DNA of 64,000 nucleotides. Origin: Desulfobacterales bacterium. GTDB taxonomy: Bacteria > Desulfobacterota > Desulfobacteria > Desulfobacterales > UBA5852. The stretch is taken from assembly GCA_963674755.2 (NCBI GenBank), contig CAXXVS010000003.1:1184001-1248000 (forward strand), written 5' to 3'. A program made the translations under genes and the position numbers. The notes beneath the pieces were generated by a model, which saw nothing but the letters and a program-made list of their open reading frames with translations, did no database searches and was not told the DNA's origin. This document shows positions 30,092-41,606 of the stretch, in pieces. Numbering within the stretch: the first letter of the stretch is position 1; every line of letters begins with the position of its first letter.

Positions 30092-31483
30092 TCAAACGTC
30101 GTGCGCGTCGATGACCTTATTGAGATCGATTCCGTACTTGCGCATGCGGTTCCACACCGTGACCCGGTTGATTCCCAGGAGCTCCGCCGCCCGGGTCTGA
30201 TTACCGCCGGTTCGGCGCAGGGCCTCGATCAGCGCCTGCCGCTCCCTGGCATCGCCCACGGGTGCCTTGCGGGCAGCGGACGCCCGCGGTACCTCGGACA
30301 GGGCGGGCGGCAGGTGGTCGACGCCGATCTGGCCGCTGTCGGCAATCACGAAGGCGTATTCCAGGGCACTTTTCAACTCCCGGATATTGCCCGGCCAGTC
30401 GTGGGCCATGACGGCCTGCAGCGCCCCGGGGGTGAGTCCCTTGATGGCCTTGCCGGTGCGCACCTGCAGCCGCTGGACGAAACTGTTGACCAGTAGCGGA
30501 ATGTCCTCCCGGCGCTCCCGCAGCGGCGGAATGCGAATGGGAATGACATTGATGCGGAAATAGAGATCTTCGCGAAACTGCTGCTGTTCGATCAGGGCCA
30601 GCAGATTCCGATGGGTGGCCGATATGATGCGCACATCCACATCGACGGAACGGTGGTCGCCCACCCGCTCGATCTGTTTGTTTTCCAGCACCCGCAGGAG
30701 CTTGACCTGGACCGAAAGGGGAATATCCCCGATTTCGTCCAGAAAGATGGAGCCCCCGTCGGCCGCTTCGAAGCGTCCTTTGCGGTGGCGGTAGGCCCCG
30801 GTGAAAGCGCCTTTGATGTGGCCGAAAAGCTCGCTTTCCAGCAGGGCGGCGTTGAGGGCGGCACAATTGAGCTGCACATAGGGTCCGGTCTTGCGGTGGC
30901 TCCGTTCGTGGATGGCCCGGGCCACCAGCTCCTTGCCGGTGCCGCTTTCCCCGAAGATGATGACCGGCGCACTGCTCAGGGCCGCCTTCTCCACCACCTG
31001 GAAGACCTTGCGGATGGCCGGAGACGTTCCGATGATGCCATGATAATCGCTAAAGTCGTTCAGCTGGCGGGAGAGCAGCTCCACCTGCTGGTCCAGCCGG
31101 TCGATTTCGCTGAGATCGGTAATCGTCTCCACCGCCCCCAGCACGTTGCCTTCGTCATCCCGCAGGACCGAGGCATTCTTGAGGGCCGGCAGGCAGGTGC
31201 CGTCCTTGCGGACGATGCCGCAACGGCAGCGGCGCATATCGGGATGATGGGGCTCGAAGAGTTTGCACCACTGCCCCAACGGATTGTTCAAAGCCTGTTC
31301 GCAGGCATCGCACCCTAGAAAGGTGCAGACCCGGCCGATGGCTTCCTCGGCGCTGTAGCCGGTCAGCCGCTCGAAGGATTTGTTGACCATCAGGATGGTT
31401 CCCTCGGCGCTGATCAGCATCAGACCGTCGTTCATGGTGTTGATGATCCGTTTCCAGTGCCGGCTGATGTCCCCGGTTTCCAT
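30092..31483 (-). CDS. PAS-domain sigma-54 enhancer-binding protein with Cys-rich sensor
   Basis: PAS with CTFLGCDAC...WC...CRC...[22 protein letters not shown], Fis-type HTH; divergent from the cytochrome operon. Confidence 0.93.
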
Positions 31484-31660: not shown

Positions 31661-31676
31661 CGGTATGCTTATTGCT
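31661..31676 (+). promoter_or_regulatory. Sigma-54 promoter of the cytochrome operon
   Basis: CGGTAT-GCTTA-TTGCT (GG 31662-63, 10 nt, GC 31674-75), just upstream of the ATG at 31703. Confidence 0.7.
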
Positions 31677-31702: not shown

Positions 31703-31951
31703 ATGGACGTCAATCTGCCGGATATCGCCGGACCGATCGGTATGCTGAAATGCCTGGCCGCACTCAGGAAGCTGCCGGCCGGTGACGCGGTGGCCTTTAC
31801 CGTGCGGGATGCGGATACGTATCACACCCTGGTAAAAATCTTCAGCCAGGATGCGCGCTGCCGCATGACCACGGAAGAAACCGCGCAAGGCCACTATATG
31901 GTTGTCCGTAAACTTAAGGAAGGAAAGATGACGACGGGAGGTACGCTATGA
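31703..31951 (+). CDS. TusA/SirA-like small protein lacking the canonical CPxP
   Basis: 82 aa; pattern NL....GPIGMLK...L..L..GD.V...V.D fits the TusA fold; ATGA overlap with next gene. Confidence 0.65.
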
Positions 31952-32868
31952 ATCTGAGCCGAAGAGGTTTTTTCAAAGTCGTGGGCGCCACCGGAACCGG
32001 CATGGCCGCCTCGCGTGCGCCGGCCGCGGCCTGGCAGTCCCGGGCCCCGGCCGATGCCTTCGGCTGTCTCGTGGATCTGACCCGCTGCATCGGCTGCCGC
32101 AAATGCGAACAGGCCTGCCAGACGGTCAACAGCCTGCCGGAGCCCGAACAGTCCTTCGACGACCTGACGGTCCTGGACCGCAAGCGCCGTCCGGACGACA
32201 AGAGCTTTACGGTGGTCAACCGCTACTATTCCGGCAAGATCGACGAACGCGACCAGCTCGTCCCCACCTTCGTCAAAATCCAGTGCATGCACTGCCAGGA
32301 TCCGGCCTGTGCCTCGGCCTGCATCGTGGGGGCCCTCACCAAAAAAGAAAACGGCGCCGTCCACTACGACGCCGGCAAATGCATCGGCTGTCGCTATTGC
32401 ATGGTGGCCTGCCCCTTCGAGATCCCGGCCTACGAGTACCACAACCCCATCACGCCTCGGGTAATGAAGTGCACCTTCTGCTACGAGCGGGTCGCCGAGG
32501 AAGGCAAGCTGCCCGGCTGCGCCCAGATCTGCCCGGTGGAGGCTATCACCTTCGGCAAGCGGGCCGACCTGCTCAAACTGGGCCGCCAGCGCATCAAAGA
32601 CAATCCAGGGCGCTACATCGATCACATCTACGGCGAAAACGAGGTCGGCGGCACGAGCTGGATGTACATCTCCGACCGGCCTTTTAAGGAGCTCGGGTTT
32701 ATCGATGTGCCGGAAAAGCCTTTGCCGCAGCTGGCGGAAACCATCCAGCACTCCCTGTTCAGTTATCTCTGGTCCCCCATCGTCCTGTTCGCCATGCTGG
32801 GCGGCGTCATGTGGGGCTTCCGGGATAAAGGCGACCGTCATGACGAGAACCAAGGAGGGAACCCATGA
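31948..32868 (+). CDS. Tat-exported 4x[4Fe-4S] protein (HybA/NrfC/HmcB-like)
   Basis: SRRGFFK Tat motif; [41 protein letters not shown]...PGCAQICP; C-terminal TM. Confidence 0.92.
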
Positions 32869-34070
32869 GCCATTCCCCAAGCCCGATGCGGACCAAGTTC
32901 TGGACGCCCGGGGTCGTTACCCTGGCCTTTCTGATGGCCGCCGGGGCCGCGGCCATCGTGGCCCGCTACACCGGTGGCATCGGTTATGTCACCAACCTGA
33001 CCAATGCCCGGCCCTGGGGCCTGTGGATCGGGGTCGACGTGGCTTCGGGGGTGGCCCTGGCCGCCGGCGGTTTCACCACGGCCTTCCTGGCCCACATCGT
33101 AAGCCGCCACTATTACGAACCGGTGGTGCGCCCGGCCCTGCTGACTGCCATGCTGGGCTACACCTTCGTCGTGCTGGGGCTGCTGGTGGACATCGGCCGC
33201 TCCTGGGCCATCTGGAAACCCCTGGTCTACTGGAATCCCAATTCGGTGCTCTTCGAGGTGGCCATGTGCGTCATGTTCTACCTCAACGTGCTCTACCTTG
33301 AATTCGTGCCCATCGTGGTGGCGCAGTACAAGGGACGGGTCAACCTGCCGGGGCCGCTGGCCGCCCTCAATGCGCCGCTGGAAGGCCTCCTCAAGGTGCT
33401 CGATGTGATCACCGGTAAGCTGATGTGGGCCTTCATTATCGCCGGAGTGGTGCTCTCCTGCATGCACCAGTCCAGCCTGGGCTCCCTCATGCTGATCGCC
33501 CCCACCAAGCTGCACCCCCTCTGGTATACGCCCATCCTGCCGCTGCTCTTTCTCACATCCGCCATTGCGGTGGGCTACCCCATGGTGGTCTTCGAAACCA
33601 CCCTGGTCACCTCATCCCTTAAGCTGGACCCGGAGATGCACATTCTCTCCCCCCTGATCCGCTTTACCGTCTTCCTGCTGGGGCTCTACCTGGCCCTGAA
33701 GATTGGCGACATGGGGGTGCGCGGCACCTACGTCTACCTGCTGGACGGCACGGCCCAGACCAACAGTTTCCTGGTGGAGCTCGTCTGCGGCGTGATCGTG
33801 CCCTGGGTCATGCTCCTGCTGCCCAAGGTGCGCCAGTCCCGCCGGGGCCTTTTCATCGCCTGCACCCTGATCGTGGGGGGTGTCCTCCTGAACCGCGTCA
33901 ATGTCTTCGTGGTGGGCTACCGTCCGCCCATCAGCGAGGCCAACTACGCCCCGGCTCTGCCGGAAATCATGATCACCGTCGGCCTCATCGCAGGCCTGAT
34001 GTTCCTCTATCGTTTTCTTGTGACCTATCTGCCGGTGTTGAACCGACCGGAACAGGAGGTGTCGGCATGA
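32865..34070 (+). CDS. NrfD/HybB/HmcC-family integral membrane quinol-interacting subunit
   Basis: [46 protein letters not shown]; about 10 TM; ATGA overlaps at both ends. Confidence 0.92.
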
Positions 34071-36184
34071 TCAACAAGTCATCTATCATTTTAGGGGTAA
34101 TACTCCTGGCGGGAATCAGCGGCGGACTGGTCGCACTCCCCCCGGTAGGCCCGGGAAGCGATGCGGTCTATGCCGCCGCAGCCCCGGAAACCGCCGCCAA
34201 GGAGACCCCGGCTGCCAAATGGTCGGCGCCGGACCAGGTGGCCGCCCTGGAACGGGCCCGGGAGACCCTGCCCTTCGTGGAAGCCGTCAAGGATGAGTGC
34301 AAGCTCTGCCGCCAGATGCGGCTGCGGGAGATGGGGCTTGGCACCAAGGACATCACCCACAACTACGTCGTCCTCAACAGCCCCATCATCAACACGGAGG
34401 AAGATCATTACGGACCGGTGCGCTTCATGCACGGCAAACACGCCTCCCAGATCCAGGACTGCGCGGTCTGCCACCACTACCGACCCCTGGCGGAAGACGC
34501 CAGCGAAACCACCCGCTGCTCGGCCTGCCACCAGGAAGCGTTTCGCCAGGACCATCCGGAGCGCATCGGGTTGAAGGCCGCCTATCACCAGCAGTGCATG
34601 GAATGCCATCGGGAGATGAACCAGGGCCCGGTGGACTGTATTGGCTGCCACGACAAGAACGCCCCCGACCACAAGGACAAAATCCAGTTGACCGCCGACG
34701 CGACCCCTTTCCAGGTGACCGCTGAGTGTCTGCGCTGCCACAAGGAGGCCGGCCAGGACATGCTGCAAACCGCCCACTGGAAGCTCAAGGGGCCGTCGCC
34801 TTATACTCTGGGCCACAGAAAGGAGGTCGAAATCGGGAAAAGCACCATTGCCACGAACAACTTCTGAATGAGCATCGCCAGCAACGAGGCTCGTTGCACC
34901 AGTTGTCACGTCGGCTATGGATGGAAAGATGCTTCTTTTGACCTCACGGATATGAGCAAGATCGATTGCCTGGTGTGTCACGACACCACCGGCACCTATA
35001 AAAAAGTCCCCACCGGCGCCGGTATGCCCGATCCGGAAGTGGATCTGGTGGCGGTGGCCAAAGCGGTGGGACCCACTTCCCGCAAAACCTGCGGAACCTG
35101 CCACTTCAACGGCGGCGGCGGCGAAGCGGTCAAACATGCCGATCTCTCCCGCCAGTTGTTGACGCCGGACCGCAATTGCGATGTGCATATGGGCGGCTAT
35201 GATTTCCAATGCACCGAGTGCCATCGCACCCGCAACCATAAAATCGCCGGACGCAGTTCTTCGGTTGCGGTGGTTGAAAGCAGTTTTTCCTGCGAAAACT
35301 GCCATACGGCCAATCCCCACCGGGGGGACGGTCTGCTGGACCATCATTTGAACAAGCACAGCCAAACCATCGCCTGCAACACCTGTCATTCCCCGGTCTA
35401 CGCCAAATGCAAGCCCACCAAGGTGTTCTGGGACTGGTCCAAGGCCGGAGACGTGGACCGCAAGCCCCAGAAGGACAAATACGGCATGCCGGACTATAAC
35501 TGGAAAAAAGGGGAATTCCGCTGGCAGGAATCCGCCAAACCCGTCTATGCCTGGGACAGCGGCTTCACCCAGCGCGTGCTGATCGGTGACAAGACGGATT
35601 GGCGAAAAGGGCCGATCAACATCTCCGAACCGGTCGGATCCATCAAGGACCCCAACTCCAAGATCGCGCCTTTCAAGATCATGAAGGGCATCCAGGCCGT
35701 GGACGCCGAATACGACTACCTGCTCGTGCCCCATCTGTTCCCACGGAACAAGGAGGACAAGACCGCCTACTGGAAGAACCGTGACTGGCAGAAATCTTTC
35801 GCGGACGGGATGAAGGCCGCCGGCTTGAAGTACAGCGGCACGTACGAATGGGCCACCTCCCAGATGTATTGGCGGGTGGAGCACGAAGTCATGCCGGCCG
35901 ACATGGCCCTCTCCTGTGTTCAGTGCCATGCCAGTCTGCAGTCCGAGGAGCGCACCTGCGACCGCTGCCACCAGGACAACCGCGCGGTGAATTTCAAAAA
36001 AATCGCCCACAAGGGAACCGACTTCAGCTACATGGCCTCCAAGGGGCGCGATGTGAGCCACCTCATCGGCACCACGGACTATATTGACTTCAAGGCCCTG
36101 GGCTACAAGGGCGACCCCATCATCTATGGCGGCCGCTTCAAGAAGCTGCCCATGGGGTACAAGGCCGAAGCGGAAAGAGAGTAG
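34067..36184 (+). CDS. Probable selenocysteine-containing 13-heme cytochrome c (cytochrome c3 domain fused to OTR-family octaheme domain); TGA 34865-34867 read as Sec267
   Basis: ORFs 34067-34867 and 34868-36184 are contiguous and in frame, reading GKSTIATNNF*MSIASNEARCTSCH where the OTR family has NNFC; 13 CxxCH in total; only the first part has an export signal and RBS. Confidence 0.85.
34865..34897 (+). promoter_or_regulatory. Bacterial SECIS-like hairpin after in-frame UGA
   Basis: Stem GCAACGA (34881-87) / TCGTTGC (34891-97), loop GGC starting with G, 20 nt after the UGA. Confidence 0.75.
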
Positions 36185-36248
36185 CCGGTCTCCGGTTTGG
36201 ATTTTCACCACCATCAAAAAGCTGCCGGGGACCTATGTTATAGATTTA

Positions 36249-36794: not shown

Positions 36795-38441
36795 TTACCA
36801 GTCAGGCCATTGCCAATCCCGGCGATCCTTCTCGTCAGCAGGCGACTCCAGCCCCTGAGGATCCAGCAGGTCGCCCCAGTTGGTACGCTCGATCATTTGG
36901 TTGCGGTTTGCGGCCGAAAGCGGGTCTTCGCCCTCCCTGATTTGCCAGCCTCCCCCCAGGGCCTTGTAGGTGGCCACCAGATTTGTGCTCACCTGGCCGC
37001 TCACGTCGGTCAAAAGATCTTCCTGGGTGACCAGGAACCGCAGGGAGTCCAATACGCGCTGGTAGTCAGCGACCCCTTCGCGATATTGCACCAGCGATAA
37101 TTCCACCGATCGGCGGGCGGCCGCGACGCTGTCTTTCAGGAACCACTCTTCTTCCTTGGACCGCGTATACGCTACCAGTGCATCCTCGACTTCCCGTTGG
37201 GCGTTCAGCACCGTATTGCGGTAATTGACCACAAGCGCCTGAAGGCGCGCATCCTCGACCCGCACACGGTTGCGGATGCGCCCGTAATTCAGAATATCCC
37301 AGCTGAAACCGGGACCGGCGGTCCAGAACATACTGTTATGGTCGAACAAATCTCCCAGATCACGGTCGCCGGAGGCGGAACTGGCATCGGTCGAGCTCCA
37401 TCCAATGCTTCCGGCCAGGTAAAAATGCGGATACAGGTCGGCCTTGGCGATCCCGATCTGAGGGCTCTGGGCGGCGATGCGCAGCTCGTTGAGCCGAATG
37501 TCGGGTCGACGTCGGAGAAGATTGTTGGGGATGTCGATAACGACGGCCTCCGCGGCTACCGGAATCTTTGCCGGCCCATCCAACACGTCCTTCAGTTCCC
37601 CCGGCAGCACCCCCAGCAGGATGGCCATAGCGTTGCGGGCTTGGCGCAGGCCGATCTCCAAGCGGGGAATCGAGGCCTGGGTGTTGCGCAGCAACGTCCT
37701 GGCCTGGGTCACATCCAACTCCGAAACGGCGCCCTCCTTGAATCGGACTTTGGCAATCTGCAGTGATTGCTCCTGCGCCTTCACGTTCTGGCCGGCGATC
37801 ACCAGGCGTTTCTGCAAGGTGCGGATGACGATGTAGGTGCGCGCAACTTCCGCCGTCAGCGAGACGAGCAGGTCGTCATAGCTGGCGACCGTGGCCTCCA
37901 GGTTGGCGGTGCCGGATTGCACCGAACGGCGGAACTTGCCCCAGACGTCCAACTCCCAGGCCGCATCGAACCCCAGGCTAAGGGCATTGAAATGATCGTC
38001 GTAAATAGGGCTGTCGCCACCGGTGCTGAGTTTGTTGTTGGTGAGATCTCCGCCGGCCGACTGCTGCTGTGGGTACAGGGTGCCAATCGCAATCCCCAGC
38101 TGGGCGCGCGCTTCATAAATGCGGATGCCCGCGATCTGCAAGGAAAGATTCTGCCGATAGGCCTTTTCAATCAGGGTGTCGAGCACGGGATCGTCAAACA
38201 CCCGCCACCAGTCGCCATAGTCGGCCTTACCGACCCTCAGGCCGGGCGCCCGGGCCTCCGCCCAGTCTTTCAGCAGCGGCGCCTCCGGTTTGACAAAATC
38301 CGGTCCGACCATGGTGCAGCCGCTCATGATCAACACCATGGCAACTCCCGCCAGCCACAAAGACATCGTTGGTTGGGGCCGTCTCGCCAAGCGCCCTGTC
38401 CGGTCTTGATCGGTTAGCGCATCGCCTGTGCCTGTATCCAT
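36795..38441 (-). CDS. RND efflux outer membrane lipoprotein (NodT/OprM family)
   Basis: Lipobox MSGC-TMVGPDF, WW..F.DP.L, WELDVWG, LLRRRPDI, YKALGGGW. Confidence 0.93.
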   Translation of the reverse strand: MDTGTGDALTDQDRTGRLARRPQPTMSLWLAGVAMVLIMSGCTMVGPDFVKPEAPLLKDWAEARAPGLRVGKADYGDWWRVFDDPVLDTLIEKAYRQNLSLQIAGIRIYEARAQLGIAIGTLYPQQQSAGGDLTNNKLSTGGDSPIYDDHFNALSLGFDAAWELDVWGKFRRSVQSGTANLEATVASYDDLLVSLTAEVARTYIVIRTLQKRLVIAGQNVKAQEQSLQIAKVRFKEGAVSELDVTQARTLLRNTQASIPRLEIGLRQARNAMAILLGVLPGELKDVLDGPAKIPVAAEAVVIDIPNNLLRRRPDIRLNELRIAAQSPQIGIAKADLYPHFYLAGSIGWSSTDASSASGDRDLGDLFDHNSMFWTAGPGFSWDILNYGRIRNRVRVEDARLQALVVNYRNTVLNAQREVEDALVAYTRSKEEEWFLKDSVAAARRSVELSLVQYREGVADYQRVLDSLRFLVTQEDLLTDVSGQVSTNLVATYKALGGGWQIREGEDPLSAANRNQMIERTNWGDLLDPQGLESPADEKDRRDWQWPDW

Positions 38442-38522
38442 AGTGCGTTCCCCTTTATAACCTGCCGATCCTGAATGGTGTCCGCATCTCGTGGCGTCCT
38501 TCTCGTGCGGTTGTGTCGGGGG

Positions 38523-41500
38523 TCAGCCAGAGACATGGTCGACCGGCGGCTTGACCCGGAAAAAGACACTGTAGAGAGCTGGAACAAAGTTGAGCGTAAA
38601 CATGCTGCCGATACCCAGGCCGAAGAACATGATGCACGCCATCCCATAGAAGAGGGGGTCGTGATTGATGATCAACGGCGTGAACCCCAGCATGGTGGTT
38701 GAAACCGAAAGCAGGATGGGCCTGAATCGGCTGACCGCCGAATTGACCACCGCATCGTAGGGCGTCTGCCCCTCGCGCCGGTTTTCCTCGATTTTATCGA
38801 TCATCACGATACCGTTGTTCACGATGGATCCGGCCAGGGCCAACAGCCCGAGGATGACCATAAACCCGAAATCGGCCTGCATCACCAACAGGCCCACTAC
38901 GGACCCCACGACGACCAGGGGCATGGTCAGGATGATGATGGCGGCCCTACGGATGGAGTTGAACTGCCATACCAGCAGGAAGATAATGCCGCCAAAGCAT
39001 GGCAGCAGCCATTTGGCGAGGTTCTTCTGGGCCTTGGCGGAGTCTTCCAATTCGCCGCCCACCTCCCACTTGTAATTTTTGGGGAACGTCATCCCGGCCA
39101 GGGTAGGTTGCAGGGCGGCAAAGATCTCGGAGGCCTTCAATACCTGGTTTTTGGCGCTGACGGTGATGGTGCGCTCCTGATTGTAGCGCACGATCCGGTT
39201 CAGCTCGCCTACGACATACACATTCGTCACCTGGCTGAGCGGCACGCTGCCTCCGTTTGACGAACGGATGCCGAGCGTGCGCAGGCTTTCGGGAGAATCC
39301 CTTTCCGCCTTGACGCCGCGCCCGACGATGGGGATTTGAACATTGCCTGTGTGGTACGTGGTCGCCGTCACGCCGTCCACAAAGAAATCCAGGGTATCGG
39401 CCACATCCTTCGATGTCACCCCGGCACGCAGGGCGCGGGTCTGATCGACATCCGCCTTGACCGCAATCACCCGGTTGTTCCAATCCTGCTTGATGTCCAT
39501 GGTGCCGGGGATGTTGCGCAGCCCGGCCATCAACTGCGCGGCCTGCTCCTCCAGCACGGCGGTATCGGGACCGCTCAGCCGGATTTCCATCAGGCCGGTT
39601 TCGCTGCCGCCCAGCCACATGGGTTTAACCCGGCCGCGGACGTTGGGGAAATGATCGTTCAGGTATTCGCTGGTGCGTTGGACGAGTTCGGGCACCTCTT
39701 TGTTGGTCTGGGTGTTGACGATCAAAAACCCGACGAAGGGATCCGGGTCCAACGGCGACAGGGAGAGGAAGAAGCGCGGCCCGCCGTTGCCCACATAGGC
39801 GATCGTACTGGTGATTTCGGGGTTGGCCTGCTTGTCCTGCAGCCAGGCGCTGACTTCTCTTACGGTCCGGTCGGTTTCCGCGATGGCCGTGCCGGCCGGC
39901 AGGTCGAGATAGATCAAATACTGGTTGCGGTCCCCGCTCGGGAAAAAGGCCTGGGGGATAAACGTGGCCGCATACAATGCGGCCGCAAACGCGCCCCCCG
40001 CAAGGGCCAGCACCAGCACCCGATTGCGCAGGGAAAAATGCAGGACCTTGCGGTAGATCCCATAGAATTTCCCTTGGTAGGGATCGCGCGCCTGTTTCTG
40101 ATCACCGCGGCCGGCCGGTTCGGTCTTTAAAAACCAGTAGCACATGCTGGTGGAGGAGAACATGGAGAGGAACCAGGACCCCATGAGCAGAATGATCATC
40201 ACCGACCCCAGCGAGGAGGTGTAATCCCCGGTGGAACCGATTTGCAGCAGAATCGGTCCGAAGGCGAACACCGTCGTCAGCGTGCTGGTGAGCAGCGGGA
40301 CGGAAAGGGAGCTGCCGGTCTTCAAAACGGCCTCCCTGCGCGCCAGACCCCTTTCCATATTGACTTTAATATCGTCGGAGACCACGATGGCGTTGTCCAC
40401 GAACATCCCCAGGGCAATGATCATCGTGGCCAGCGACATGCGCTCCAGATCGATGCCCAGCGCCTGCATCGCCACGAGACCGAAAAGCATGACCAGGGGG
40501 ATGAACGAGCCGACGATCAATCCGGTTCTAAGCCCCAGCAGCAGCATGACCACCACCAGGACGATGGCCACGCTTTCGATCACGTTGATCACCATGCCGT
40601 TGACGGCCTTGTTGATGAGTTCCGGCTGGTAGGTCGCGAATTCGAGCACATAGCCCCACGGCAGGGACTGCTCCAACGCATGCACTTCCTTCTGCAGCCG
40701 CTCGCCGAACGCCACGGCATCGACCCCCCGGAGGATAAAGACGCTCAGGACGATGGCCTGGTGCCCATTGTAGTAGGCCGGATTGTTGATGGGCTCCACG
40801 TAAGCTTTGCGGACGGTGGCGATATCCCTCAGCGGAATCGAGGCCCGGGTGCCGGAAATCGGGATCAGAACCTCTTCGATCTCCTCGATGGACGTGAACC
40901 GGCCTTCGGTTTCCACGATCAATTCCACATCGTCGATGTCGATCCGGCCGCCGGGCAAAAGGATGTTCTGGGCCCGCAAACTTTTCCCGATATCGGCGGG
41001 ATCGATTCCCAGCTGCGCCATCTTGGCGTTGGACACCTCGAGATAGATGCGCTCGTCCTGCACGCCGGTCAGATCGACCTTCTGGATGCCCTTCAGCAGG
41101 TTGAGGCGCTCTCTGATCTGCCGGGCGGTTTCTTGCATTTCCGCCATGCTGAAGCCATCGCTCCACAGGGCGATGGTGGCCACCGACGTATCGCCGAAGG
41201 TATCGTTGACCATCGGTCCGACAGTGCCTTCCGGCAGTTCGGGTTTGACATCGTTCATCCGGTTGCGCAGCAGTTTCCATGTCGCCGGGAGCTGTTCGGC
41301 GGGCACTTCATCCTTGATGGTCACATGGATCAGGCATTCGCCGACCTTGGAGGTGGAATTCCTGATCTTGTCCACTTCGCCCATGCTCCGGATCTGCTCT
41401 TCGATGGGCCGGGTGATCAGGCGTTCCACCTGTTCCACGGGCATGCCCGGATTTTTTGCAACCACCACTGCCTCGCGGATCGTAATGAAGGGGTCCTCCA

Positions 41501-41606
41501 GTTTCGGGAGGTTTATAAATGCATACACGCCTCCCACGACGAGCAGCACCATCGACATGATGACGGTTCGCGAGTTGTTCAGAGCAAATGCGGTGATTCC
41601 CTTCAT
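38523..41606 (-). CDS. RND efflux permease (AcrB/AcrD/AcrF family)
   Basis: 1027 aa, two large periplasmic loops, GMFVDNAIVV, RFRPILL. Confidence 0.93.
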   Translation of the reverse strand: MKGITAFALNNSRTVIMSMVLLVVGGVYAFINLPKLEDPFITIREAVVVAKNPGMPVEQVERLITRPIEEQIRSMGEVDKIRNSTSKVGECLIHVTIKDEVPAEQLPATWKLLRNRMNDVKPELPEGTVGPMVNDTFGDTSVATIALWSDGFSMAEMQETARQIRERLNLLKGIQKVDLTGVQDERIYLEVSNAKMAQLGIDPADIGKSLRAQNILLPGGRIDIDDVELIVETEGRFTSIEEIEEVLIPISGTRASIPLRDIATVRKAYVEPINNPAYYNGHQAIVLSVFILRGVDAVAFGERLQKEVHALEQSLPWGYVLEFATYQPELINKAVNGMVINVIESVAIVLVVVMLLLGLRTGLIVGSFIPLVMLFGLVAMQALGIDLERMSLATMIIALGMFVDNAIVVSDDIKVNMERGLARREAVLKTGSSLSVPLLTSTLTTVFAFGPILLQIGSTGDYTSSLGSVMIILLMGSWFLSMFSSTSMCYWFLKTEPAGRGDQKQARDPYQGKFYGIYRKVLHFSLRNRVLVLALAGGAFAAALYAATFIPQAFFPSGDRNQYLIYLDLPAGTAIAETDRTVREVSAWLQDKQANPEITSTIAYVGNGGPRFFLSLSPLDPDPFVGFLIVNTQTNKEVPELVQRTSEYLNDHFPNVRGRVKPMWLGGSETGLMEIRLSGPDTAVLEEQAAQLMAGLRNIPGTMDIKQDWNNRVIAVKADVDQTRALRAGVTSKDVADTLDFFVDGVTATTYHTGNVQIPIVGRGVKAERDSPESLRTLGIRSSNGGSVPLSQVTNVYVVGELNRIVRYNQERTITVSAKNQVLKASEIFAALQPTLAGMTFPKNYKWEVGGELEDSAKAQKNLAKWLLPCFGGIIFLLVWQFNSIRRAAIIILTMPLVVVGSVVGLLVMQADFGFMVILGLLALAGSIVNNGIVMIDKIEENRREGQTPYDAVVNSAVSRFRPILLSVSTTMLGFTPLIINHDPLFYGMACIMFFGLGIGSMFTLNFVPALYSVFFRVKPPVDHVSG

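Follow-up and report, generated by a model that had tools for sequence, protein, structure and literature searches.

Octaheme tetrathionate reductase (OTR), represented by the Shewanella oneidensis enzyme (1SP3), is a multiheme cytochrome in which a lysine of an adjacent helix serves as ligand to the catalytic heme (PMC13562315). Selenocysteine (Sec)-containing proteins of the family model TIGR04315, which describes octaheme cytochromes of the tetrathionate reductase family, have been listed as "GenBank annotated" in Table 1 of a 2026 review (PMC13188914; example WP_331457571.1), where the entry names neither a Sec motif nor a primary paper. The gene considered here lies at positions 34067-36184 of a 64,000-nucleotide (nt) stretch of DNA from a Desulfobacterales bacterium (assembly GCA_963674755.2, contig CAXXVS010000003.1, positions 1,184,001 to 1,248,000), which was analysed as a whole and is called the window below. 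Its sequence makes it very probable that this is one gene, in which the UGA at 34865-67 is recoded as Sec. The product is another member of the catalogued Sec-TIGR04315 family, with which it shares the family model and the presence of one Sec; the type was already listed, so the novelty claimed for it in an earlier note on the window (the original prediction) was overstated. A full-text literature search found no biochemical study of a Sec-containing OTR.

The sole characterised multiheme selenoenzyme that was found is MccSep, or ExtKL, of Geobacter sulfurreducens (2026), a five-heme enzyme in which the reduction of polysulfide depends on a Sec next to a Cys-ligated heme, the enzyme itself being essential for sulfur respiration (PMC13510729). 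As described in that paper, MccSep resembles the cytochrome predicted for the window in being a periplasmic multiheme cytochrome c whose one Sec adjoins a catalytic heme of unusual ligation, in being split at the UGA by gene callers, and in having Cys forms nested among its Sec forms. In contrast, MccSep belongs to another family and is a tetramer with five hemes and a His/Cys-ligated heme, whereas the catalytic heme of the window's protein is predicted to be lysine-ligated; moreover, the ExtKL model, NF040886, was absent from the latter's five NCBIfam matches at E ≤ 0.001. By analogy, MccSep may serve best as a working model for the attack of Sec on S-S and Se substrates.

With respect to genetic context, the closest described systems are the Ohc, Hmc and HybA-HybB modules of sulfate reducers, which, like the present locus, combine a periplasmic multiheme cytochrome with a periplasmic iron-sulfur (Fe-S) protein and a membrane subunit; another shared feature is a divergent sigma-54 regulator, as described for ohcBAC and DVU3142, the ohcBAC module of Desulfovibrio being sigma-54-regulated (PMC4641369). 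Unlike the Ohc/Hmc modules, the locus possesses an enzyme-type OTR rather than an HmcA-type carrier, and its two other subunits fall below the HmcB and HmcC cut-offs, the HybA cut-off being passed by about 1 bit. Finally, a subgroup of the Desulfobacterales encodes a selC*/selB*/cysS* cluster, proposed to act as an opal suppressor, for which Cys insertion at an opal codon was reported in E. coli (Mukai et al. 2017, PMC5389517), and U73 is known as an identity element for CysRS (PMC8762117).

Gene Layout and Protein Identity

As the original prediction had noted, two open reading frames (ORFs) abut in one frame across a single TGA. The first, of 266 amino acids (aa; 34067-34867), is closed by the TGA at 34865-67, and the second, of 438 aa (34868-36184), follows it directly. 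Translation of 34067-36184 confirmed this layout, with the TGA as the single stop in frame, and gave a read-through product of 705 aa in which the codon stands in the context GKSTIATNNF-U-MSIASNEARCTSCHVGYGW. The claim that the downstream part lacks both a Shine-Dalgarno sequence and a signal peptide was likewise borne out by inspection: the ATG at 34868 is preceded by neither a GGAGG-like sequence nor a purine run, and the part after the TGA begins MSIASNEARC with no hydrophobic leader, while the upstream part opens with a typical signal peptide. The tryptic peptide across the junction, given earlier as NNFUMSIASNEAR, had to be corrected to STIATNNFUMSIASNEAR (residues 259-275). As a side observation, a 708-aa open frame on the minus strand (34091-36217) spans the whole cytochrome gene, most probably as the shadow ORF of a gene with high GC content and biased codon use.

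The proposed membership in the OTR family held up on two counts. The protein scores 493.7 bits with TIGR04315 (cut-off 375), with residues 201-623 covering profile positions 2-429 of 440, and it matches the Shewanella OTR structure (PDB 1sp3_A) at E 1.4e-112. In the latter alignment U267 falls, as had been claimed, on the Cys that is conserved in OTR homologs (Cys64), and K258, nine residues earlier, falls on the heme ligand Lys56. The likeness to OTR extends along the whole chain, the 1sp3 alignment reaching residue 622 and resuming at 673-685, and includes eight CxxCH motifs (at residues 221, 277, 301, 342, 382, 409, 437 and 617) as well as the motif NNF-x...SNE-x-RCTSCH-x-GYGW around the Sec column. 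The differences are the Sec in place of Cys64, an added N-terminal c3-like domain, a 13th heme motif located after the last one of the OTR core, and an operon with HybA/HybB-like partners. Partial matches of the c3-like domain to HmcA and TmcA were found, together with matches to nine-heme and Hmc cytochromes of the PDB at E 1e-15. The original prediction had mentioned one heme motif before the stop, CLRCH, and this is indeed present at residues 221-225, but four more CxxCH motifs, of the c3 type, also precede the stop.

All 13 CxxCH motifs, comprising the four of the c3 domain, the eight of the OTR core and the additional one, are invariant together with K258 in all 30 of the best loci (61-100% identity, the window's own locus included). 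From its alignment with Lys56, Lys258 is predicted to be the ligand of the catalytic heme. Sec267 would lie near the active site, as suggested by the alignment to Cys64 and Lys56 along with the location of Cys64 of 1SP3, which is reported to be at the active-site pocket (Mowat et al. 2004).

Sec and Cys Forms among Relatives

The wider distribution of the UGA was explored with a protein search of 301 genomes of the same order, which gave matches in 189 genomes; 150 matches were listed, with 126 more beyond the list, and TGA codons were counted by hand from those listed. An in-frame TGA was present in 58 of these 150 matches, and its frequency differed by architecture: 35 of 54 c3-fused proteins and 23 of 68 short, OTR-only proteins possessed one. 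A third architecture, in which the OTR core (from residue 186) is embedded in open frames of ~1100 aa (e.g., G163:C409 and G208:C50), had none in 28, again among the matches listed.

The alternation of TGA and TGC that the original prediction had expected of orthologs was found in the 30 best loci, where the NN[F/Y]-x column is occupied by TGA in 26 and by TGC in four. Short-type paralogs, ~45% identical to the query, were then sampled by fetching 20 of the 23 TGA-bearing ones, and all 20 of these genes, which were selected for TGA, have it at the same column. The placement of the codon is more than accidental: it occupies exactly the Sec column in all 46 TGA genes checked, including those of the four closest relatives, which are of the same genus. 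At this position the short paralog in the same genome (C1:346601-347884) carries TGT (Cys), and full-length relatives in the databases have Cys, apart from four with Leu or Ala. The expectation that standard annotation would split the gene also proved correct, in that 11 of the 120 best database clusters are C-terminal fragments of 432-438 aa starting just after the Sec column.

A FastTree tree was built from 81 OTR cores, consisting of the 30 best loci, the 20 TGA-selected short forms, the genome's own paralog, and every third full-length database protein with a recognisable motif. In this tree, which is quick, unrooted and biased in its sampling, and which gives no direction of change between Sec and Cys, the Sec forms fall into three clades, and six Cys forms are nested within the c3-fused Sec clade (99% local support).

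The Recoding Signal

Bacterial selenocysteine insertion sequence (SECIS) elements are stem-loops that occur shortly downstream of the UGA and possess a G in the apical loop. A hairpin of this description begins 13 nt past the UGA in the cytochrome gene, and its GGC loop, at nt 24-26 with the U of UGA as nt 1, has the same spacing as the GGA loop of the genome's own selD on C1. The hairpin folds in most orthologs. Moreover, 41 of the 46 TGA genes, that is, 41 of 41 genes of one type, share the 19 nt GCAACGAGGCTCGTTGCAC without a change, even though five synonymous sites fall within this stretch, one at the third position of each of the Asn, Glu, Ala, Arg and Cys codons. Equally conserved codons a few positions further downstream are split between synonyms in these 41 genes (Cys 22/19, His 26/15, Gly 26/13/2 and Tyr 18/23). 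All five of the Cys forms compared are altered at the silent sites within the 19 nt, and the stem cannot form in them.

The remaining five TGA genes (L054, L055, L056, L059 and L067) have SNWC(R/S/G)C in place of SNEARC, and the hairpin at this site is of another sequence in them, UGGUGC-[AGGU/AGUU/GGGU]-GCACCA, with a 4-nt, G-rich loop and a closing pair that is C:G in L054 and U:A in L067. This second clade of short Sec-type OTR genes represents an alternative SECIS solution within one protein family. A further candidate, the minimum-energy hairpin starting at the A of UGA, was rejected as a SECIS element because the orthologs do not keep it.

Decoding Machinery and Sequence Accuracy

The 6.7-Mb genome encodes the complete set of selA, selB, selC and selD that the original prediction had called for: selA (604.8 bits), selB (346.1 bits), a tRNA-Sec (75.6 bits, anticodon UCA), and two selD genes (371.3 and 367.7 bits; C1:776949-777875 and C3:2083622-2084545). 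Each selD has one in-frame TGA of its own, and both are Sec-type selenophosphate synthetases.

A second tRNA(UCA), located at C1:791277-791366, has A1 paired with U72, possesses U73, and has its CCA encoded in the gene. It is directly followed by the gene for a 646-aa SelB paralog, 30% identical to SelB, that keeps SelB-wing_2 and SelB-wing_3, and this gene overlaps a 491-aa cysS paralog (TIGR00435, 403.6 bits). The gene order, the overlap, the A1:U72 pair, U73 and the UCA anticodon are those of the published selC*/SelB*/CysRS* cluster; unlike the CysRS* described there, the paralog in this genome retains its DALR and anticodon-binding (CysS_C) domains (PMC5389517). Three cysS-like genes are present in the genome altogether.

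Support for a sequencing or assembly error, with TGC or TGT as the true codon, was sought and none was found. Public contigs from run X3, which comes from a second study and has a different organism label, span 34580-35034 with 0 differences, and those of X1, possibly the source sample, span 34597-34885, also with 0 differences. Together with the orthologs, including the four same-genus relatives that share the TGA, these contigs refute an error at this codon. Contigs of X5 and X7 span the TGA with 22 and 18 differences, respectively, and none of the differences listed falls at 34865-67; these two runs were given no weight in either direction. In a separate observation, the contigs of X1 and X7 end at 34885 and restart at 34900, while summed depth rises 6- to 18-fold in the bin 34848-34918; this seems to fit the collapse, during assembly, of an invariant hairpin-plus-heme-motif stretch that is common to many genes in the samples.

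Alternative Readings

The alternative that survives best has the UGA read as Cys, either wholly or under selenium shortage, with the selC* tRNA-Cys(UCA) being charged by the CysRS paralog and delivered by SelB* so as to yield a Cys protein or a Sec/Cys mixture. The cluster just described speaks for it, both in the features of its tRNA (A1:U72, U73 and CCA) and in the SelB paralog overlapping a cysS paralog, and it matches in these respects the Desulfobacterales cluster with which Cys insertion in E. coli was reported (PMC5389517). Natural Cys forms of the enzyme, found in four of the 30 best loci, point the same way. On the other hand, a complete canonical Sec system is present too, and the CysRS paralog's retention of the DALR and anticodon-binding domains sets it apart from the described CysRS*. 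In addition, a plain TGC would serve if Cys were the normal residue, and related lineages have repeatedly switched to TGC. On balance, this reading is quite improbable: Cys decoding is unlikely as the exclusive route and conceivable as a conditional side route.

A related and bolder proposal is that residue 267 is decoded facultatively, by SelB and Sec-tRNA when selenium is available and by SelB* and Cys-tRNA(UCA) when it is not, in what would be a novel lysine-heme/selenolate reductase acting on S-S or Se substrates at the end of a sigma-54-controlled quinol module. We regard this scenario as doubtful but conceivable. The need to satisfy two factors could then be part of the reason that the 19-nt hairpin is frozen across paralogs that are only ~45% identical.

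That the TGA is a true stop, leaving either a pseudogene or two genes (for a 266-aa pentaheme and a 438-aa heptaheme protein), is scarcely credible. It is true that standard gene callers produce this same split, as in the database clusters noted above, and that in this genome an ATG directly follows the TGA. Some truncated 266-aa product is also to be expected even with Sec insertion, for competition by release factor 2 at a Sec UGA probably yields some in any case. Nevertheless, TGA occurs at the same column in 46 genes from many families of the order with the frames intact on both sides, and the downstream part has neither signal peptide nor Shine-Dalgarno sequence. Moreover, 16 of 41 TGA genes have ATC or GTC directly past the TGA, so a separate downstream gene would often be without a start there. 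The split would also part OTR heme 1 and the lysine ligand from the heme that this lysine ligates.

Several observations nonetheless weigh against reading the gene as that of a Sec enzyme of the OTR type, or limit how far this reading can be taken. With regard to the hairpin, a 66-nt fold of the region is no stabler than its shuffles (z = 0.02), and its minimum-energy structure is a different, non-conserved hairpin. The main hairpin type also has no covariation to offer, as it never varies. An Rfam scan of 34700-35100 at E ≤ 10 returned no SECIS family, only three chance-level miRNA matches at E 3-9; this null was not weighed against the hairpin, since Rfam's coverage of the bacterial kind of SECIS is uncertain. 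With regard to decoding, the genome's selC*/selB*/cysS* cluster would be able to deliver Cys to the same UGA, and selenium incorporation and a full-length product are predicted from sequence. With regard to function, the tree needs at least eight Sec/Cys changes, at least six of them forced by well-supported branches, which, along with the few relatives that have Leu or Ala, indicates that the chalcogen residue is not indispensable to the fold. Finally, the physiological substrate of OTR itself is described as unsettled, nitrite and hydroxylamine reduction also being cited (PMC13510729). Taken as a whole, the alignment, the alternation of codons, the machinery and the reads support what the original prediction had proposed, a Sec267 in a 705-aa exported heme protein.

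Operon and Neighbouring Genes

The cytochrome is probably the last gene of a sigma-54-dependent operon (Table 1). Its three genes stand in the same order (HybA-like, HybB-like and cytochrome) in 29 of the 30 best loci, with the Fe-S subunit gene upstream of the cytochrome in 29 of 30 and the membrane-subunit gene directly upstream in 29 of 30 (64-91% identity). The Fe-S subunit scores 264.1 bits with HybA (NF008134, cut-off 263) and 369 bits with HmcB (NF045715, below its cut-off of 420). The membrane subunit scores 320.4 bits with HybB (NF008133) and 267.5 bits with HmcC (NF045714), below the respective cut-offs of 450 and 550; as an NrfD-family protein, it is presumed to provide the quinone/quinol site.

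The divergent sigma-54 regulator, which probably controls the operon, has a homolog upstream of it in 10 of the 14 related genomes that were compared. The candidate -24/-12 promoter in the window is weak, and stronger matches (at least 8/11) were found in six of 10 orthologous upstream regions, all judged by the sigma-54 consensus. A pattern search over the whole window gave 116 loose matches and was uninformative.

The small ORF at the head of the gene cluster, at 31703-31951, whose translation is coupled to that of the Fe-S subunit gene, was considered as a sulfur carrier or core part of the system and rejected, with its TusA match below threshold and the ORF present upstream in just four of 14 related genomes, all near relatives. 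Downstream of the cytochrome, on the minus strand, an RND efflux pair occupies 36795-41606, where the outer membrane factor is of the NodT type (324.5 bits) and the pump of the AcrB family (498.3 bits); it is probably unrelated to the operon.

Table 1. Features of the cytochrome locus (window positions, except where a contig is given) and the evidence for each.
Feature	Position	Strand	Evidence or remark
Predicted gene for an exported selenoprotein cytochrome of 705 aa with 13 hemes (c3 domain, OTR core and additional heme)	34067..36184	+	Read through UGA267
UGA codon, predicted selenocysteine 267	34865..34867	+	Aligns with Cys64 of 1SP3
Sec-type (secretory) signal peptide, ~residues 1-36, cleavage site uncertain	34067..34174	+	Read by eye: MINK, hydrophobic stretch, AVYA/AA
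Tetraheme cytochrome c3 / HmcA C-terminal-like domain, residues 113-199 (CAVCH, CSACH, CMECH, CIGCH)	34403..34663	+	Pfam Cytochrom_CIII, 49.4 bits
Octaheme tetrathionate reductase core, residues 201-623, eight CxxCH	34667..35935	+	TIGR04315, 1sp3_A
Lys258 codon, aligned with Lys56 of 1SP3	34838..34840	+	Alignment; invariant in 30/30 loci
SECIS hairpin, stem GCAACGA/UCGUUGC (7 bp), loop GGC (34888-34890)	34881..34897	+	Ortholog conservation
13th heme motif CDRCH, residues 631-635	35957..35971	+	Invariant in 30/30 loci; within an insertion relative to Shewanella OTR
Sigma-54 enhancer-binding regulator, N-terminal PAS, divergent	30092..31483	-	Pfam Sigma54_activat 237.9 bits, PAS, HTH_8
Candidate sigma-54 -24/-12 promoter, CGGTAT-N5-TTGCT (weak)	31661..31676	+	7/11 consensus positions
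82-aa ORF, weakly TusA-like	31703..31951	+	Pfam TusA E 7.8e-4, 19.7 bits (cut-off 28.6); stop overlaps next gene's start
HybA/HmcB-like periplasmic poly-[4Fe-4S] subunit, twin-arginine signal SRRGFFK, C-terminal membrane anchor	31948..32868	+	Profile matches; signal and anchor by eye
HybB/HmcC-like NrfD-family integral membrane subunit	32865..34070	+	Pfam NrfD 75.1 bits; stop overlaps cytochrome start (ATGA)
selC*/selB*/cysS* cluster (loci L017, L074), outside the window	C1:787903-791366	-	tRNA features, gene order, overlap

Proposed Mode of Action

A working model can be drawn from these features. Its observed elements are the recoding signal with its conservation, the Sec machinery and the domain layout of the protein; that selenium is incorporated, which substrate is used and which way the electrons run are inferred. 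The hairpin at 34881-97 would recruit SelB with Sec-tRNA(UCA) to UGA267, and the product would be exported by the Sec pathway and matured by Ccm to hold 13 c-type hemes: four in a c3-like entry domain, eight in the core, and an extra one towards the C-terminus. In the folded protein, Sec267 would replace Cys64 between Lys258, the putative ligand of the catalytic heme, and that heme's CxxCH (residues 277-281). Electrons from the menaquinol pool could pass through the NrfD-like membrane subunit to the Fe-S subunit, and travel on from there over the c3 domain and the chain of hemes to the catalytic heme with its lysine ligand. There, the selenolate of Sec267 may attack either an oxyanion substrate or a bond between two chalcogens; tetrathionate, polysulfide or thiosulfate, or selenite are the likeliest candidates.

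Implications

Since the selenoprotein family was already listed, the finding mainly adds a well-documented member and comparative detail to it; the family is catalogued yet biochemically unstudied in the literature searched. The same literature search found no paper on the chemistry of a selenolate beside a lysine-ligated catalytic heme. In this regard, the locus provides a clean test case, with its conserved three-gene quinol module, its natural Cys variants, and a host genome possessing two UGA-recoding systems. Should the facultative decoding of residue 267 prove true, one respiratory enzyme would toggle between a selenium and a sulfur form without a second gene. Moreover, gene callers cut this widespread enzyme in two, and wherever it is split, errors consequently arise in the heme counts, the selenoproteome size and the respiratory inventory given for sulfate-reducer relatives.

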